From positions 1-60,293 of the IMG/VR virus record IMGVR_UViG_3300046779_000619: a DNA stretch of 60,293 nucleotides, one strand, 5' to 3'. Position numbers and translations under genes: made by a program. Positions within the stretch are counted from its first letter, which is position 1; each line of letters opens with the position of its first letter. The DNA comes from a virus. Taxonomy: Duplodnaviria; Caudoviricetes. Below are positions 2,565-48,545 of this stretch, one piece after another. The notes under the pieces were generated by a model. That model was not told the origin of the DNA, searched no databases, and was given only the letters and a program-made list of their open reading frames with translations.

Positions 2565-3463
2565 TATGCAAAAATCTCTAGTGCTGTACCACATTCTACA
2601 CAAAACTTAGCATGAGCTTTGTTTTGCTTACCGCATGTAACACATTTTGGTTTACGCTCAACTGTAACAGGTTTCATTACAGGCTTGTTATCAGGAGTTT
2701 CTCCCAACAGCTTTAGAACAATAGTATGCTTTTCAGCCTCCATTTCGCCCATGGTAACCGTTGTGAACTTTTGAGTACTCTTGCTACCCGGAACAGTAAT
2801 ACCAACATCGTTCCAGTCCATAGTGGCTGTACCATCATGAACATTCATTGACTGCGGTACTACGGCATCAATGGCTGCTGTTGCGGCAGCTTTAGTAGCT
2901 TCTCCATTACTGAAATCAACACCACGCATTACACCGCCAACATTCGCAGAGTAGGTAGCACCACTAGCAGTTACAGAGAATCGATCTTTACCTAAGCTGC
3001 CGCTAACACCTGTAGTAGTAGCATTAGTGCTATACCAAGGTGTACGAACGCCCTGTGGATAAATCATACCATCGTTATTGAAGATAGAGCTAACATTGAT
3101 AACAGGACGAGGCTTTTCATATTGAAACTCAATACGTACCAAACCATCTTCTAGTTTAGCACCACGCGGTCCGTCTTCGATTGCCTGTGTACGTTCAATG
3201 AACTTGAAACGATTGCCTGCTGATAAGTTACCGTTTTTAACATAACGCTCAAGATCAACTTCTTGGCCTGCGTTGAGCACAAGGCCACCTTCGATGACAT
3301 CTTCACCATCGATAAAGATGTTGACTAATGCTCGTGTGGTGTTGAGGTTCTTGATTAGAAAGCTATATTCGCTACCAAATGGAATATAGACTGTGTCCTT
3401 GAATTCACGGAGGATCTTGCCGTTAGCTTTTAGACTCGCAACGAGTTTTGATTGATACATCAT
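2564..3463 (-). CDS. Hypothetical protein with C-terminal zinc ribbon
   Basis: 299 aa; CVTCG...FCVECG. Confidence 0.8.
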   Translation of the reverse strand: MMYQSKLVASLKANGKILREFKDTVYIPFGSEYSFLIKNLNTTRALVNIFIDGEDVIEGGLVLNAGQEVDLERYVKNGNLSAGNRFKFIERTQAIEDGPRGAKLEDGLVRIEFQYEKPRPVINVSSIFNNDGMIYPQGVRTPWYSTNATTTGVSGSLGKDRFSVTASGATYSANVGGVMRGVDFSNGEATKAAATAAIDAVVPQSMNVHDGTATMDWNDVGITVPGSKSTQKFTTVTMGEMEAEKHTIVLKLLGETPDNKPVMKPVTVERKPKCVTCGKQNKAHAKFCVECGTALEIFA

Positions 3464-4878: not shown

Positions 4879-5823
4879 TTAAAACTCCGAAAACTCTTCG
4901 TCATTCTCTAGTTCGAACTCTGCTTTCTCGGCATCGAGTACTTTGGCAATGGCAGCGTTCATTACGCGATAACCGTGATGCTCTTGTTCTTGACTGCCCT
5001 CGTGTGCGCCCGGAATCCAAACACGGCGAGTTTGATGCATAAATCCGTCAATGTACTTGGCTTTCAGATGTTCTATCAAGAGTAGCTGTGCATCTTTACG
5101 ATTACCCTTTTGCATTAAACTAATAACAGTATCGTCAATGTCTAGGATCTTTGAATAGCGATAGTTATCGCCTCTCATCCATTTGCCAACCTTGTTAGAA
5201 TCACCATACTTGAAGAGATCCTTAATACCGCCAAAGAATCGCAGGCCTAATCCACTTTCTTCATCTTCACTTAGCTTTTCTTCTAGCTTATCGAGAAACT
5301 CTGGCAAGTCTGCAACAATGTCTCGAAAACCGTAGATAATATAGTTGTTATCCCAACCAGTAGTACCGTTACCGTCACCTACATAATCTTCACGCTGCCA
5401 GTTTGCAATGATATCGTCAACAACATCCTTACGGAACATTACGAAGCCAACGTCGATAGGGGTAGCCATAGAGTGTTGCTTTACTTTTAAGCGATCTTCG
5501 TGGACGGCTTCAAAGAACAGTTCTTCATCGAAGTCTGCTTTCTTAACAGCAATGTCGTGGGACTTATTATCGCCCACTTCTACTTCGACCAGTTTCTCTT
5601 TAATAGCATCCATGATCAATGTCATTGCTGGGCCACTGCTATTTTCACCCCCACCGTAGTCGTTGTATTCGCTTTCAAACGGCACCAGCAATGGGCTGTA
5701 GAAAGGAGTAGAGTAGCATAGGCTGTCAATCTTTTGATTGCGCTCAAGTACAAATACATATACAGGAGTACCGTGCTTGATATGTAGATTACTTAGACCG
5801 CAGGTTTTATTCCAACATCCCAT
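4879..5823 (-). CDS. Hypothetical acidic protein
   Basis: Long ORF starting MGCWNKTCGLS after GAGGGAG SD. Confidence 0.8.
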   Translation of the reverse strand: MGCWNKTCGLSNLHIKHGTPVYVFVLERNQKIDSLCYSTPFYSPLLVPFESEYNDYGGGENSSGPAMTLIMDAIKEKLVEVEVGDNKSHDIAVKKADFDEELFFEAVHEDRLKVKQHSMATPIDVGFVMFRKDVVDDIIANWQREDYVGDGNGTTGWDNNYIIYGFRDIVADLPEFLDKLEEKLSEDEESGLGLRFFGGIKDLFKYGDSNKVGKWMRGDNYRYSKILDIDDTVISLMQKGNRKDAQLLLIEHLKAKYIDGFMHQTRRVWIPGAHEGSQEQEHHGYRVMNAAIAKVLDAEKAEFELENDEEFSEF

Positions 5824-6107: not shown

Positions 6108-6182
6108 TGGTGCGCTATGTGGGAATCGAACCCACGATTCGGAGTTTTAGAGGCTCCTGCTATGCCACTTAGCTAATAGCGC
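6108..6182 (-). tRNA. Amber suppressor tRNA (anticodon CUA), encoded CCA
   Basis: Cloverleaf: acceptor GCGCUAU/AUAGCGC+ACCA, D-arm GCUA/UAGC, anticodon arm GGAGC-CU-CUA-AA-ACUCC (C31:A39 mismatch), T-arm GUGGG-UUCGAUU-CCCAC. Confidence 0.9.
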
Positions 6183-6191
6183 GATGTTTTT

Positions 6192-6220
6192 ATTATACAA
6201 TCATATTGTTAGATTGTCAA
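6192..6220 (-). promoter_or_regulatory. Consensus sigma70 promoter for the tRNA
   Basis: TTGACA-N17-TATAAT. Confidence 0.85.
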
Positions 6221-6223
6221 TGA

Positions 6224-6424
6224 TTAATATTCGCCGTCGTCTTCTTCGCCGAAGATATACGCAGACATTTTCTTTTCTGCGATTGCTTTAGATTCATCAT
6301 CCTTCATTGCACAATCAAAACAGATCTGTTCATTGTTAGGGCCATACGGGCGGCACTCATCTAGCTTGCCACACATTTCACAGAACTGTTCGGGCTCTTG
6401 CATTATTACACCACGTCCACTCAT
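6224..6424 (-). CDS. Small Cys-rich protein
   Basis: CEMCG...CRPYG...ICFDC. Confidence 0.7.
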   Translation of the reverse strand: MSGRGVIMQEPEQFCEMCGKLDECRPYGPNNEQICFDCAMKDDESKAIAEKKMSAYIFGEEDDGEY

Positions 6425-6927
6425 TTTGTTTCTCCTAGTGTTTCTTCCAACCAAAGTTTACATTCAGGCCATTCTTTGTATTGATGGGCACGACCACCAG
6501 CAGCACGCCATTCGTCGCAGTTACTGCCACGATCATCGATTAGAATGTCTCCGGGATTGCGACAGTGCATGTACTTTTGGTTTGCATAGGGTCCAAGAAA
6601 TACCGGAATACGTGGAAAGTAACGATGTGCCCAGAATACCTTATCCTGGGGCGCCCAAGGCATATCGTTACCCTTGGGTATTGCACTTAGAAAGAAGACC
6701 TGCCCACCTGTGCTGTCTGCATAGTTAGTGACCCATTCAACAAGCTCTAGAGCGCCTTCTCGTAAAGGCAGTTCGCTATACAATCGTTGATTGTCCTTAA
6801 GACGACGCCACTTACCGTCAGGCAAGCGCTCATCTTTCTGGAACTTATGATCTAGCATTTTTTCAACATGACCTTGCCAGTCTGCTACTACATCATCCAT
6901 ATCCAGATATATTGTTAACTTAGTCAT
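6421..6927 (-). CDS. 5'(3')-deoxyribonucleotidase, HAD family
   Basis: IYLDMDDVVAD motif I; LIDD motif IV. Confidence 0.85.
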   Translation of the reverse strand: MTKLTIYLDMDDVVADWQGHVEKMLDHKFQKDERLPDGKWRRLKDNQRLYSELPLREGALELVEWVTNYADSTGGQVFFLSAIPKGNDMPWAPQDKVFWAHRYFPRIPVFLGPYANQKYMHCRNPGDILIDDRGSNCDEWRAAGGRAHQYKEWPECKLWLEETLGETK

Positions 6928-30696: not shown

Positions 30697-30998
30697 TTAA
30701 AGAAAATCAGTGCCATCATTACTGCTTGAACAATGAAGCCCAGGCCGATTGTAATGATATTGAGCATGTCTTTCTGTACTGCTGCCTTGATGAACAACAA
30801 TGTAAGACCGGACCAAACTAGCAATACTAGATCCACACCAGGCAAGCGATCTGTAAGTCCACTCATTACTGCGAGCAAACTTGGAACAGTTGCGGCATGT
30901 AATACCAACACTGCTAACCACCCAAATGTTTCTGCAGAGACTGAAGAGAACTTAGCAAGGATAGATTCTTTGAACAGTTGAAGATTAAAGTCTGTCAT
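30693..30998 (-). CDS. Three-TM membrane protein
   Basis: Hydrophobic, coupled to hydrolase. Confidence 0.75.
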   Translation of the reverse strand: MTDFNLQLFKESILAKFSSVSAETFGWLAVLVLHAATVPSLLAVMSGLTDRLPGVDLVLLVWSGLTLLFIKAAVQKDMLNIITIGLGFIVQAVMMALIFFK

Positions 30999-31555
30999 TT
31001 TTTAGTTCCTTTGTCTTTGGGTTTGTAGAAAATGTGATTACCGATACTTCCGATTTTGTCTAAGTTCCATTTAGGATTGACATAGTTTGCATGATAGTAC
31101 AGTGCTTCTTTTAAGACGTCAAGTTTGAATCCTTCCAATAGCACCTTCTTAGCAACTTCATAACTTTCTTTATAGGCAGCATTTTGTAAAGGCGCTACCT
31201 TGGATCCTGATTCGCAGTACCATGAGAACTGGCATACGACTTTTTCCATTATAACACTTTTCTGATAAATGACACCGCAGATATCTTTTGGGAAGTCTGG
31301 GTGTGCCGCACGATTCATAGTAACCTGTGCAACAGCAACTTTACCTTCGAAGCTTTCGTGTCCTGCTTCTCTATAGATATTAAGGGCAAGACAATCTAGT
31401 TGTCTTTCTCTGGTTTTGATTGTAACGACATCTTGGCTGTAGTAGCCATTTCGTTCACGAAGGTTATTGAACTTGGTATCTGTTACTTTCATTACAAGAA
31501 ACGATACCAAAACAATACCTAAAATAAAGGCAGTAAGCCTTAATGCTTTTTCCAT
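30995..31555 (-). CDS. SleB-like cell-wall hydrolase (Hydrolase_2), N-terminal TM
   Basis: CLALNIYREAGHE...VAVAQVTMNR...CQFSW...IGNHIFY. Confidence 0.92.
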   Translation of the reverse strand: MEKALRLTAFILGIVLVSFLVMKVTDTKFNNLRERNGYYSQDVVTIKTRERQLDCLALNIYREAGHESFEGKVAVAQVTMNRAAHPDFPKDICGVIYQKSVIMEKVVCQFSWYCESGSKVAPLQNAAYKESYEVAKKVLLEGFKLDVLKEALYYHANYVNPKWNLDKIGSIGNHIFYKPKDKGTKK

Positions 31556-31805
31556 AAGTCCTCCTTTGACTTGGTGCGATCATTGCTGATCGCATTACAT
31601 AAAGGGAGTTAACTTCACGAGGCTCTGAAAGAACCCTACTTTCGTGTAGTTGTCTCCATTGGACGCACAATCTCATAACTTGTGTGCCTTTGGCGACCCT
31701 TGGCTTCCCGAAAATACGGGTTTCTCATTGGCCAAGACCCGCGGGTTTAATAAAATGAATCCCATTAAATCAAACCAACTATCTTAGTTTCTTTGCGAAA
31801 CGTAG
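31556..31805 (-). ncRNA. Candidate structured ~250-nt RNA leader of the SleB-like gene
   Basis: Five or more nested stems, including UGCGAUCA-GCAA-UGAUCGCA. Confidence 0.55.
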
Positions 31806-31849
31806 TAATATATACCTCATAATCCAATATCACAGGGCGAAACCGGTGA

Positions 31850-32230
31850 TTATCGACGCATTTTGGCAATATCTTGAGCTTCTTCATCGCTGAACACCGG
31901 CACTGCATTGCTCTTGTGCATTGTGCCAATGCCTTTAATCTTGTCTCCGGTGTAGATTTTATCTGGGGCTTTTACACACGGAACCATACCTGTGTCACGG
32001 CTAGGAATGTGGCGACTGCTACGACCAGGAGGTACATCCAACTTGTATACATCTTTTAGTGTTTTCTTTATTTCTTTGACAACTTTCTTGTTGTCGTATT
32101 TGTCTAGGATAGCTTGCCAGCTTGCTGCTTGTTCTTCAAACTTTCGTTTAGATTCGGCAGAAGTAAATTTCTTCTTGCCTTTTTTCTTGCCTGTGGTACT
32201 GAGCCACGGGCCTTCTAAATGCATACTCAA
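31850..32230 (-). CDS. Conserved basic phage hypothetical protein
   Basis: C-terminal YTG..IKGIGTMHKSNAVPVF...AKMRR. Confidence 0.8.
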   Translation of the reverse strand: MSMHLEGPWLSTTGKKKGKKKFTSAESKRKFEEQAASWQAILDKYDNKKVVKEIKKTLKDVYKLDVPPGRSSRHIPSRDTGMVPCVKAPDKIYTGDKIKGIGTMHKSNAVPVFSDEEAQDIAKMRR

Positions 32231-32263
32231 AAGAAACCTCCAAACTTGTTAAACTATAGGACT

Positions 32264-32292
32264 AGTATAACAGAAAGTTTGGAGGTTGTCAA
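32264..32292 (-). promoter_or_regulatory. sigma70-type promoter within an inverted repeat
   Basis: TTGACA-N17-TATACT. Confidence 0.75.
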
Positions 32293-32297
32293 GTCTA

Positions 32298-32816
32298 TCA
32301 GTTAGCTACTACTCTAGCAACACTGGTCATTACTGCGGCAATACGTCCGATGTCACGAAGTTGTTCTACAGTATAGCCTTCCTTCTTGAGTGTTTCGTAG
32401 TGTGCCTTAACGCAGAAGTGACACTTGCCCACAATACTAGCTGCCAAACTATAGGCTTCGAAACGAGCCTTTGTAGTTCCGCCGTGGCTTGCAATAGCAT
32501 TCATGCGTAACTGTGCTGGCAAGCCTTTCAGCTGCTCGTCATCGGCCATTTCAACGTAGGGATACCAGACGTTGTTTTGAGCCATAATGCTAGCGGCTGT
32601 CAAGGCAGCATCTGCTTCTTTACGATCTGCAAGCTGACTATGAATCCAAGTCCATAGCTTGCTATTGCCTGTTGCAAATGCTGCCGCTAGTGCAACAGCT
32701 TCAGCTTCTTCAACTGGCAGTGTTGAACGTTTGATAACTGCGTCAATATTGAGTTTTGTGTCTCTAGCATACTCAGGGATGCTTGACTCTTTAAGAGCGT
32801 CTACCCATGCTGTCAT
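32298..32816 (-). CDS. ahpD: Alkyl hydroperoxide reductase AhpD
   Basis: IPEYARDTKLN...LRMN...GKCHFCVKAH. Confidence 0.93.
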   Translation of the reverse strand: MTAWVDALKESSIPEYARDTKLNIDAVIKRSTLPVEEAEAVALAAAFATGNSKLWTWIHSQLADRKEADAALTAASIMAQNNVWYPYVEMADDEQLKGLPAQLRMNAIASHGGTTKARFEAYSLAASIVGKCHFCVKAHYETLKKEGYTVEQLRDIGRIAAVMTSVARVVAN

Positions 32817-34204: not shown

Positions 34205-34220
34205 ATATTATTCCAAATAA

Positions 34221-34246
34221 AGAAAGGCTACCGGAGTAGCCTTTCT
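34221..34246 (-). terminator. Intrinsic terminator after tmRNA
   Basis: AGAAAGGCTAC-TCCG-GTAGCCTTTCT then U-rich tract. Confidence 0.8.
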
Positions 34247-34580
34247 GGTAGTTTCTGTTACGAGGTATTTCCTACCCTAAGCAGTGTTTAGGCTGCTAAT
34301 GCGAACTTTGAGTCGTTTGCGTTTACTTTTTTTGCGTCTACGGCCGGGAAACCCCAACCCTACGGCTTCTGCTTTGCCGAGCTGTCCACTCTGTTACTCT
34401 TTGCCCAATCGATCCTGTGTCAGGCCCATCAAAAGCACACATAAGCAGACATTACTTCACCACTATCGTCTGTACCATCGCACTATTTCAGGTGAGAAGC
34501 GATGTATGTGCTTTTGGTGGACCTGGCGGGCACTGCCCCCGCGTCTTGAACTTATTTCTCATCGCTTCATACAGCAATAA
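34247..34580 (-). ncRNA. ssrA: Circularly permuted (two-piece) tmRNA; tag ANDSKFALAA at 34288-34320
   Basis: Acceptor piece ends GCGGG-GGCAGUG-CCCGC-CAGGUCC-ACCA (34515); intervening stem; coding piece starts GGGCCUG (34427) giving G3:U70. Confidence 0.92.
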
Positions 34581-34597
34581 CTTATATTTAAACATCT

Positions 34598-34900
34598 TTA
34601 AGCAAAGATGTCAATATCTACTTTCTCTTTTTGGATTTGTTTTTCTGGACGAATAGGCTCTAACCAAGTGTCCGGGATATAGGCTTTAGGTGTGTCACCT
34701 AACATATTGGTAAGTCCGTAATCAGTAGCTACCCACCAGAAGTGATCAGTAATGATAGCTTTACATTCTACGCCTCGGAAGAAGAAAGATTCTCCTGCTT
34801 TGAAGTGTCCAATGTAGCTGTCAACTAACACAGTCTTACCTATGTTAGCAGGACGTATGCTATGAATGATTTTGGCTAGATCGCCAGCTTCGCATTTCAT
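34598..34900 (-). CDS. Hypothetical protein
   Basis: MKCEAGDLA...PDTWLEPIRP. Confidence 0.7.
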   Translation of the reverse strand: MKCEAGDLAKIIHSIRPANIGKTVLVDSYIGHFKAGESFFFRGVECKAIITDHFWWVATDYGLTNMLGDTPKAYIPDTWLEPIRPEKQIQKEKVDIDIFA

Positions 34901-41700: not shown

Positions 41701-41708
41701 TATTTATA
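41701..41708 (-). promoter_or_regulatory. T4-type late promoter
   Basis: TATAAATA upstream of nrdA. Confidence 0.6.
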
Positions 41709-48537: not shown

Positions 48538-48545
48538 TATTTATA
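48538..48545 (-). promoter_or_regulatory. T4-type late promoter
   Basis: TATAAATA followed by GTCCC-GGAGC-GGGAC hairpin. Confidence 0.65.

Follow-up and report, generated by a model that had tools for sequence, protein, structure and literature searches.

Why would a phage keep some 250 nt of elaborately folded RNA directly in front of the gene for its cell-wall hydrolase? The question is raised by a 60,293-nt stretch of virus DNA (positions 1 to 60,293 of the IMG/VR virus record IMGVR_UViG_3300046779_000619; this whole stretch is referred to as the window), in which a sequence-only reading had noticed a highly structured leader and proposed a new riboswitch-like element gating a lytic enzyme. 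We found that the leader is a genuine, widespread and uncatalogued structured RNA family tied to phage lysis enzymes, and that it represents a new class of an already familiar kind of system, that of translational riboswitches or operator-like elements. As to what it does, we lean, by a modest degree, toward a cis-acting regulatory RNA of ~250 nt that forms the 5' untranslated region (UTR) of an exported endolysin messenger RNA (mRNA) and acts as a translational switch on the Shine-Dalgarno (SD) sequence.

First, we asked whether the leader is more structured than expected by chance and whether its structure is shared by relatives. The gap between an upstream open reading frame (ORF) of 126 amino acids (aa) and the endolysin gene comprises positions 31556-31849 (294 nt, minus strand), whereas the leader had been placed at 31556-31805; the conserved RNA is indeed ~250 nt long and extends from about 31807 to 31551 on the minus strand. 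Each hairpin that had been read from the letters was located in the minus-strand sequence. A 321-nt stretch had a minimum free energy (MFE) of -97.8 kcal/mol, compared with -77.1 +/- 4.7 kcal/mol in 100 shuffled sequences, none of which was as good (z -4.43). Relatives were collected from IMG/VR by scans guided by two proteins, the endolysin and the product of the upstream ORF, and by a scan with a 16-nt DNA word of the leader; together these gave at least 280 loci. A leader profile was present in 173 of the 281 loci examined; this and the other family counts are lower bounds, taken from among the matches listed in all three scans, and hundreds of further members are to be expected. Some contigs are represented twice, and the number of distinct full-length leader copies is at least 106. 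Their nucleotide identity to the copy in the window ranges from 71% to 96%, and the flanking endolysins are 53-74% identical to that of the window at the protein level, apart from one near-identical locus (L002, 99%). The alignment comprised 99 distinct core sequences (the window and 98 others), with truncated or rearranged copies (L008, L033, L090, L111, L112, L184 and L211) omitted. The parts of the leader and the flanking genes are as follows.

31809-31814, minus strand: TATATA box, promoter-like, 7 nt 5' of P1; conserved in upstream sequences.
31787-31801, minus strand: P1 hairpin, GUUUC-loop-GAAAC, probable 5' terminal hairpin; stem invariant in 99/99 sequences.
31777-31786, minus strand: near-invariant linker CUAAGAUAGU, alternative partner of GUCUUGG in the P3 5' strand, as judged by pair compatibility.
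31744-31776, minus strand: P2 hairpin, GGUUUGAU/AUUAAACC, variable in sequence; 7/8 pairs change on both sides.
31693-31742, minus strand: P3, GUCUUGGC/GCCAAGG, with a conserved asymmetric internal loop (..AAUGAGAAA..); only one-sided changes counted.
31720-31707, minus strand: P3a, inner hairpin CCCG/CGGG within P3.
31662-31688, minus strand: P4 hairpin, GGC-CACAA/UUGUG-GCC; 7/8 pairs change on both sides.
31605-31657, minus strand: P5, long arm made of P5a (GGAG/CUCC), P5b (AACU/AGUU), P5c (CACGA/UCGUG), a bulge and P5d (GGUUCU/AGAGCC).
31601-31608, minus strand: anti-SD segment CUCCCUUU, either the P5a 3' strand or a partner of the SD, as judged by pair compatibility and RNAalifold.
31575-31594, minus strand: P6 hairpin, 8 bp with a GCAA loop, variable in sequence, just 5' of the ribosome-binding site (RBS); 5/7 pairs change on both sides.
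31553-31564, minus strand: SD sequence GGAGG (31564-31560) and endolysin start codon ATG (31555-31553).
30995-31555, minus strand: the regulated gene, encoding a SleB-type cell-wall hydrolase of 186 aa that carries a hydrophobic anchor at its N-terminus, assigned by Pfam, PHROG and tblastn.
31850-32230, minus strand: 126-aa ORF upstream of the leader; matches PHROG 27048, which assigns no function.

Some helices change freely and others hardly at all. The P1 loop varies among members (GCAAA, GUAA, GAAA or GAGA), and P2 shows up to 5-6 pair types at a single pair. The 5' strand of P3 (C.GCG.GUCUUGGC) is invariant, and its 3' strand exists in three length variants, each of which still pairs when the alignment is read by eye. 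Within P5, both-side changes were found in 2/4 pairs of P5b and 3/5 of P5c; P5a is invariant and changes in P5d are mostly one-sided. P6 is flanked by the near-invariant linkers UWAUGUAAUG and CACCAARUSAAAGGAG, and downstream of it AAAGGAGG leads to the endolysin ATG at 31555.

To quantify these changes, we combined the alignment with a manually drawn structure into a covariance model (R1; 258 positions, 62 pairs), on which the sequences were then re-aligned. Standard pairs occupied 88.9% of the cells, compared with 79.5% in column shuffles (0/500 reached this value), and the covariation score was 0.302, compared with 0.125 in the shuffles (0/500) and 0.025-0.060 when the partners were slid by 1-3 columns. 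Both-side changes occurred in 637 cells, compared with 200 in the shuffles, and 26 model pairs change on both sides. Re-alignment to a model favors that model; the same compensations are visible in plain MAFFT alignments. In an independent scan, the top 9 pairs by mutual information with average product correction were all model pairs, the strongest of the whole alignment lying within P6. Helices P2, P4, P5 and P6 are thus backed by covariation, and structure is conserved among homologues, the lack of which would have told against the leader. Since G-U pairs are frequent (they would be A-C on the opposite strand), the RNA strand is the strand of the genes. The best pair outside the model joins the W of CUUWAUG with the S of AAnUSAAAGG; most of the 99 sequences have U..C or A..G and a handful A..C or U..U, a pattern that may be explained by shared descent.

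A scan for long-range helices retained only two candidates, an alternative P3 helix and a CUCC:SD helix, both of which are considered below. Other interactions were rejected: kissing between the P3a loop and the P5 bulge is complementary over 5 bp in one class (33 sequences) and not in the other classes; an 8-pair GGGUCUUG/UAGGGUUC helix consists mostly of G-U pairs; and helices AACCC/GGGUU and GUUUC/GAAAC (the latter with the P3 loop) are invariant and clash with supported hairpins.

Second, we examined whether the leader belongs to a known family or encodes a peptide. When the whole window was searched with the 4227 models of Rfam 15 (cmscan at gathering score), no match was found in the leader. 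With expectation values (E) up to 10, nothing in 31400-32000 was better than E 2.8; the chance-level hits overlapping the gap and the start of the coding sequence were a small nucleolar RNA (E 2.8) and a long non-coding RNA (E 6). The leaders of six divergent members gave no family at E up to 5. In a literature search that excluded supplements (e.g., comparative-genomics motif lists) and subscription journals, we found no description of the leader RNA. No conserved reading frame was present among the 99 leader sequences, so the possibility that the region is simply a translated conserved ORF can be set aside. Depending on the frame, 55, 4 and 6 of the 99 sequences have an ORF of 30 aa or more spanning the invariant GUCUUGGC block (lengths 0-74 aa); an ORF that begins with ATG, has 20 or more codons and stops at the invariant UAA is present in 23/99; and 1-nt indels between sequence classes shift the frame.

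These results bear on one specific suggestion, that the leader is a divergent ydaO (cyclic di-AMP) riboswitch or another known cyclic-nucleotide riboswitch, possibly reading the product of a phage cyclase. The ydaO riboswitches are found upstream of cell-wall hydrolases, and the words GUAGGG and UAACUCC, which had called them to mind, are present. However, the words are no evidence of ydaO, as no covariance-model match to it was obtained in the window at gathering score, in 31400-32000 at E up to 10 or in the six divergent members. Moreover, among five near-complete related genomes, the presence of a cyclase does not track that of the leader: a Guanylate_cyc domain occurs in one genome with the leader (G001) and one without (G004), and is absent from another with it (G002) and from two without (G003 and G005). 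We therefore regard this explanation as extremely unlikely. The leader resembles ydaO-yuaA (RF00379) as a long structured leader associated with a cell-wall hydrolase, and differs from it in the lack of a covariance-model match, in being a linear series of hairpins and in having been found in phages only. Of the original proposal, the idea of a new riboswitch-like element holds so far as the leader is structured, covarying, non-coding, unmatched in Rfam and equipped with an SD and an anti-SD segment, whereas the links to ydaO and to a cyclase were not borne out.

Third, we analyzed which genes the leader accompanies. The 186-aa protein in the window matches Pfam Hydrolase_2 (SleB domain, E 9.4e-26) and a PHROG annotated as endolysin (E 1.5e-20), and tblastn with it found annotated endolysins of many phages. 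It is followed by a 101-aa hydrophobic protein overlapping its stop codon, and then by a 2-oxoglutarate-Fe(II) oxygenase and lipoproteins, one of which has a weak Rz-like spanin match; the leader thus heads a lysis cassette. Among the 173 leader-bearing loci, the next gene is directly a SleB homologue in 143 and a DPBB_1 protein in 18; 10 are contig ends and two are rearranged, with an insertion of ~1.9 kb in L184 and a partial copy in L090. The proteins of the 18 DPBB-type loci (14 distinct sequences, 144-175 aa) combine what looks like a cleavable signal peptide with a double-psi beta-barrel resembling that of RlpA, and all three that were tested matched Pfam DPBB_1 'lytic transglycolase' (E 1e-22 to 2e-24). 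Such an RlpA-like lytic transglycosylase is not homologous to the SleB-type hydrolase, and these loci share none (0/9) of the proteins encoded around the leader in the window; the one that was inspected is phage DNA, with tail-fibre, helicase and S21 genes. Because the same leader precedes an unrelated enzyme in a different context, the RNA has been kept with the function of an exported wall-degrading enzyme despite exchange of both fold and surroundings. The leader occurs once in the window, once in each of the 98 other loci and once each in G001 and G002, near-complete genomes of 327-353 kb.

The same positional data speak to whether the element is a free-standing non-coding RNA or ribozyme that merely adjoins a lysis gene. 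Two contigs from the RNA libraries of two studies, 240 and 244 nt long, reach little beyond the leader, as might be expected of a separate RNA; their ends also coincide with the limits of the conserved sequence, which is what the assembly of mixed strains would produce. The leader abuts the RBS in 99/99 aligned sequences, ends 8-15 nt 5' of the start codon in every member and holds a segment complementary to the SD, and neither a terminator (no U-run follows P6) nor an Rfam match to any ribozyme family was found in it. An independent RNA is thus very unlikely.

Several structural variants were observed in the vicinity of the family. In L184 (~6190-6500), the leader is cut after P5 and the insertion lies between it and the endolysin gene; in L110-L112 (~5360-5680), it stands ~2.4 kb from the homologue of the 126-aa ORF, with extra genes inserted upstream; and internal deletions occur in the leaders of L008, L033, L211 and L112. 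A sister group of SleB genes, with 60-62% identity, is preceded by another structured region of ~300 nt (L027, ~135-475; L028 and L030, ~2660-3000), in which compensatory changes are visible among the three copies. Homology of this region to the leader was considered and rejected, as an unfiltered search with model R1 matched the SD region only.

We then considered where the transcript might begin. In 86/92 distinct upstream sequences, the first G of P1 is preceded at a distance of 6-8 nt by a TATATA box, although the surrounding 40 nt vary. Because the box is conserved amid variable sequence, it is probably a promoter, with P1 as the 5' end of the transcript. TATA-like octamers (TATAWAWW) are depleted in the window (11, compared with 29.6 +/- 7.1 expected; every shuffle had at least 11), with 8/11 on the minus strand, which is the coding one; no enrichment of CTATATAW or TATATAWWW was seen in the window. 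The exact word TATAAATA occurs twice in the window, in the gaps before nrdA (41701-41708) and before a 140-aa ORF (48538-48545), and for this reason we do not call the box a 'late' promoter.

The position of the box helps to judge an explanation modeled on the lysozyme gene e of phage T4, which has an inhibitory leader (McPheeters et al., 1986, as treated in passages of the review PMC3014915). By analogy with this documented paradigm, the leader would hide the SD on read-through transcripts from a sigma-70-like promoter, and an inner promoter would give short, translatable late transcripts. A strong, near-consensus sigma-70-type promoter (TTGACA-17-TATACT with TG; 32292-32264, minus strand) does lie 5' of the 126-aa ORF, and the invariant WATGTAAT in the leader resembles an upstream TATATAAT-type box by eye. 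However, WATGTAAT is not enriched in the window (5 matches, 7.7 expected), and the T4 case, as those passages present it, has a promoter within the structure, from which transcripts start without the inhibitory 5' strand, whereas the conserved TATATA box stands 5' of P1 and hence of the whole leader. A simple hairpin would also do for such a block, which leaves 250 nt of covarying structure unexplained. We consider a gene e-type block unlikely. The two systems may nevertheless be alike in that the SD of a phage endolysin gene could be sequestered by an upstream complementary strand, which in T4 averts premature translation of the lytic enzyme (passages in PMC3014915). They differ in that T4 has one simple helix, defeated by late promoters inside it according to the same source, whereas the leader is a six-helix, covarying RNA of 250 nt with a built-in decoy, the GGAG of P5a, that competes for the anti-SD.

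This decoy is central to the switch that we favor. The CUCC of the P5a 3' strand, together with the CUU that follows it, has two complementary partners, the upstream GGAG and the AAAGGAG of the SD. Across P6, an OFF helix of 9 pairs could form (CUCC:GGAG of the SD, UU:AA, A:U, U:R and U:A), and 99.8% of its pairs are compatible over the alignment; a second alternative helix of 7 pairs, CUAAGAU with GUCUUGG, competes with P3 and is 99.6% compatible. When the partners were slid as a control, the two helices counted together were 33-54% compatible. The changes within them are one-sided and keep the pairing (U-G to U-A in 29 sequences, A-U to G-U in 19), and the upstream strand is able to pair with the SD in 99/99 sequences. 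Of the two pairings, RNAalifold chose that with the SD for the alignment, and RNAfold chose P5a for the window. When either state was forced, the predicted energies were nearly equal.

We propose the following mechanism. Transcription would start from the TATATA box, placing P1 as the 5'-terminal hairpin. With CUCCCUU paired to the upstream GGAG, P5 would be closed, the SD free and translation ON; with CUCCCUU paired to the SD AAAGGAG across P6, translation would be OFF. A second mutually exclusive pair, CUAAGAU or CCAAGG with GUCUUGG, may belong to the same switch. P3-P5 and the near-invariant linkers would serve as the sensor domain, and a trigger would set the balance between ON and OFF and thereby the timing of lysis. 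The near-invariance of these single-stranded linkers is as would be expected of segments that have two partners or a bound factor. As no terminator-like feature follows P6, control would not be exerted by attenuation. Both enzyme types, as read from their sequences, carry their own export signal and would need no holin to reach the wall; translation may therefore be a sensible point at which to hold them back. As for the trigger, our expectation is divided: roughly one third goes to a small molecule or ion, which would make the leader a true riboswitch, one third to a phage or host protein or RNase, and the rest to constitutive structure.

A number of observations weigh against a switch of this kind. 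The free-energy difference between the ON and OFF states was -1.6 +/- 1.8 kcal/mol over the 99 sequences, with ON lower in 83/99, so the RNA could be constitutively open; the comparison is rough, because the forced OFF fold of the window rearranges the upstream helices. No pair of P5a, of CUCC:SD or of the alternative P3 helix shows a both-side change, and covariation thus neither supports nor refutes these helices; since the switch segments are invariant, the pairing data represent compatibility rather than proof. The P4 loop GUUAUGAGA is kept in the main sequence classes only and is not conserved across the family, and alignment scans found no supported pseudoknot or multi-helix junction resembling a ligand pocket. 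Three near-complete relatives (G003-G005) have no leader; nor do more distant SleB genes, where the upstream gap measures 31-314 nt and holds at most a hairpin 5' of the SD. The leader is therefore dispensable for this kind of phage. In favor of the leader RNA, contigs of all four freshwater metatranscriptome runs analyzed (four studies) cover leaders of relatives (95-99% identity over 31548-31744); being contigs, they indicate presence in RNA libraries, give no start, end or level, and cannot prove transcription, and the uncovered parts are uninformative.

Part of this evidence could also fit a static leader, in which P1 and the tandem hairpins would protect a late lysis mRNA from 5'-end-dependent decay and/or keep the SD open, with no switching at all. 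The ON fold is the predicted MFE structure in the window as well as the more stable one in most homologues, P1 directly follows the promoter-like box, and the alternative helices are not proven by covariation. A stabilizer, however, would need neither 250 nt with near-invariant linkers nor the invariant triplets GGAG/CUCC/GGAG and CUAAGAU/GUCUUGG/CCAAGG, and gaps of 30-130 nt suffice in relatives. We consider a purely static role rather doubtful.

Somewhat less doubtful, though still tentative, is an operator for a protein or RNase, in which a phage or host RNA-binding protein or nuclease would act on hairpin-CCAA repeats or on UWAUGUAAUG to repress or activate translation, much as T4 RegA, gp32 and RegB act on their targets. 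The word CCAA follows four helical elements (the P3 5' strand, P3, P4 and P6), with a fifth copy in the P3 3' strand. Members with U at the variable linker position contain UUAUGUAA, part of the consensus aaAAUUGUUAUGUAA obtained for T4 RegA by systematic evolution of ligands by exponential enrichment (SELEX), and GGAG is the cleavage motif of RegB, both as given in passages of PMC3014915. However, RegA sites are described there as unstructured and overlapping the AUG, whereas the UWAUGUAAUG linker lies ~45 nt upstream. PF01818 (RegA family) was unmatched in the five near-complete related genomes, a weak argument given that control genomes were equally silent, and no candidate protein was identified. 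Other words also recur in the leader: AGAAAC occurs in the P1 3' arm and in the P3 internal loop, and AAAGG and GGAG each occur upstream and again in the SD. Judged from the letters, these internal repeats suggest a possible origin by duplication, or decoy sites.

Returning to the translational switch, its most specific form would be a phage-specific 'lysis clock' class of riboswitch, in which P3-P5 would bind a metabolite or ion and stabilize P5a, pulling CUCC off the RBS, so that two unrelated folds of Sec-exported endolysin would be timed in the same way. The signal would report on how the infected cell is faring, and might be a depletion of nucleotides or energy, or a precursor of the wall. 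A covariation-backed structured domain in a 5' UTR, as is typical of riboswitches in general, was found over the 99 aligned sequences. We regard this version as possible, with a chance well below even.

Comparison with other leaders gives some further orientation. The manA and wcaG motifs found in T4-like cyanophages (Weinberg et al., 2010; passages in PMC2864571) are likewise orphan RNAs carried by phages; they are candidates for cis-regulation, have come mostly from metagenomes and lie in the 5' UTRs of a few kinds of gene. The genes behind them, as that source describes, are metabolic and exopolysaccharide genes of marine phages, whereas the leader precedes lysis genes in freshwater phages. 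The leader is unrelated to both in sequence and structure, without a match to either in Rfam. In bacteria, Salmonella mgtA has a multi-state 5' leader of ~250 nt with mutually exclusive helices that integrate signals. Unlike mgtA, the leader has no conserved leader peptide, shows no homology to it, and would act on an SD rather than on a Rho or terminator site.

When to lyse the host is among the central life-history traits of phages, and textbooks attribute this timing to holins. A large conserved RNA at the RBS of self-exporting endolysins, kept through an exchange of the enzyme, points to control of lysis at the RNA level, and such a layer would sit in abundant, uncultured freshwater jumbo phages. 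A leader that senses a metabolite would add a new class to the riboswitches, the first to be linked with phage lysis, and one that binds a protein would define a new translational operator; were it a lysis clock, lysis would be timed by an RNA sensor and not by a holin alone. With 99 distinct sequences and a covariance model, it is a defined target, and possibly a part for controllable lysis circuits.

Some additional observations concern the distribution of the family and the rest of the window. The window is a fragment with a CheckV completeness of 17%, and near-complete relatives measure 327-365 kb. A blastn search of 30900-32300 against 50,697 phage records found no isolate phage with the leader at that sensitivity; the sole isolate-phage match of the region was to 31851-31954, the 3' end of the 126-aa ORF (73% over 104 nt), in an unannotated stretch of the Synechococcus phage record ON615601.1. 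In bacterial and archaeal genomes, one of 120 stretches with the 16-nt word, among the matches listed, carries the leader, the others being chance matches; this complete copy (L328, 2900-3155, 224 bits) lies on a 4.3-kb contig binned into a bacterial metagenome-assembled genome and is probably a phage contig carried into the bin. In one DPBB-type locus (L182, 3062-3316, minus strand), a homologue of ribosomal protein S21 (PHROG 21469, E 1.6e-16) is encoded two genes 3' of the RlpA-like gene behind the leader. Nearly all long ORFs of the window are on the minus strand, which also carries a transfer RNA at 6111-6182 and, at 34218-34615, a transfer-messenger RNA (tmRNA) recognized by Rfam (permuted tmRNA, 102 bits; beta_tmRNA, 88 bits).
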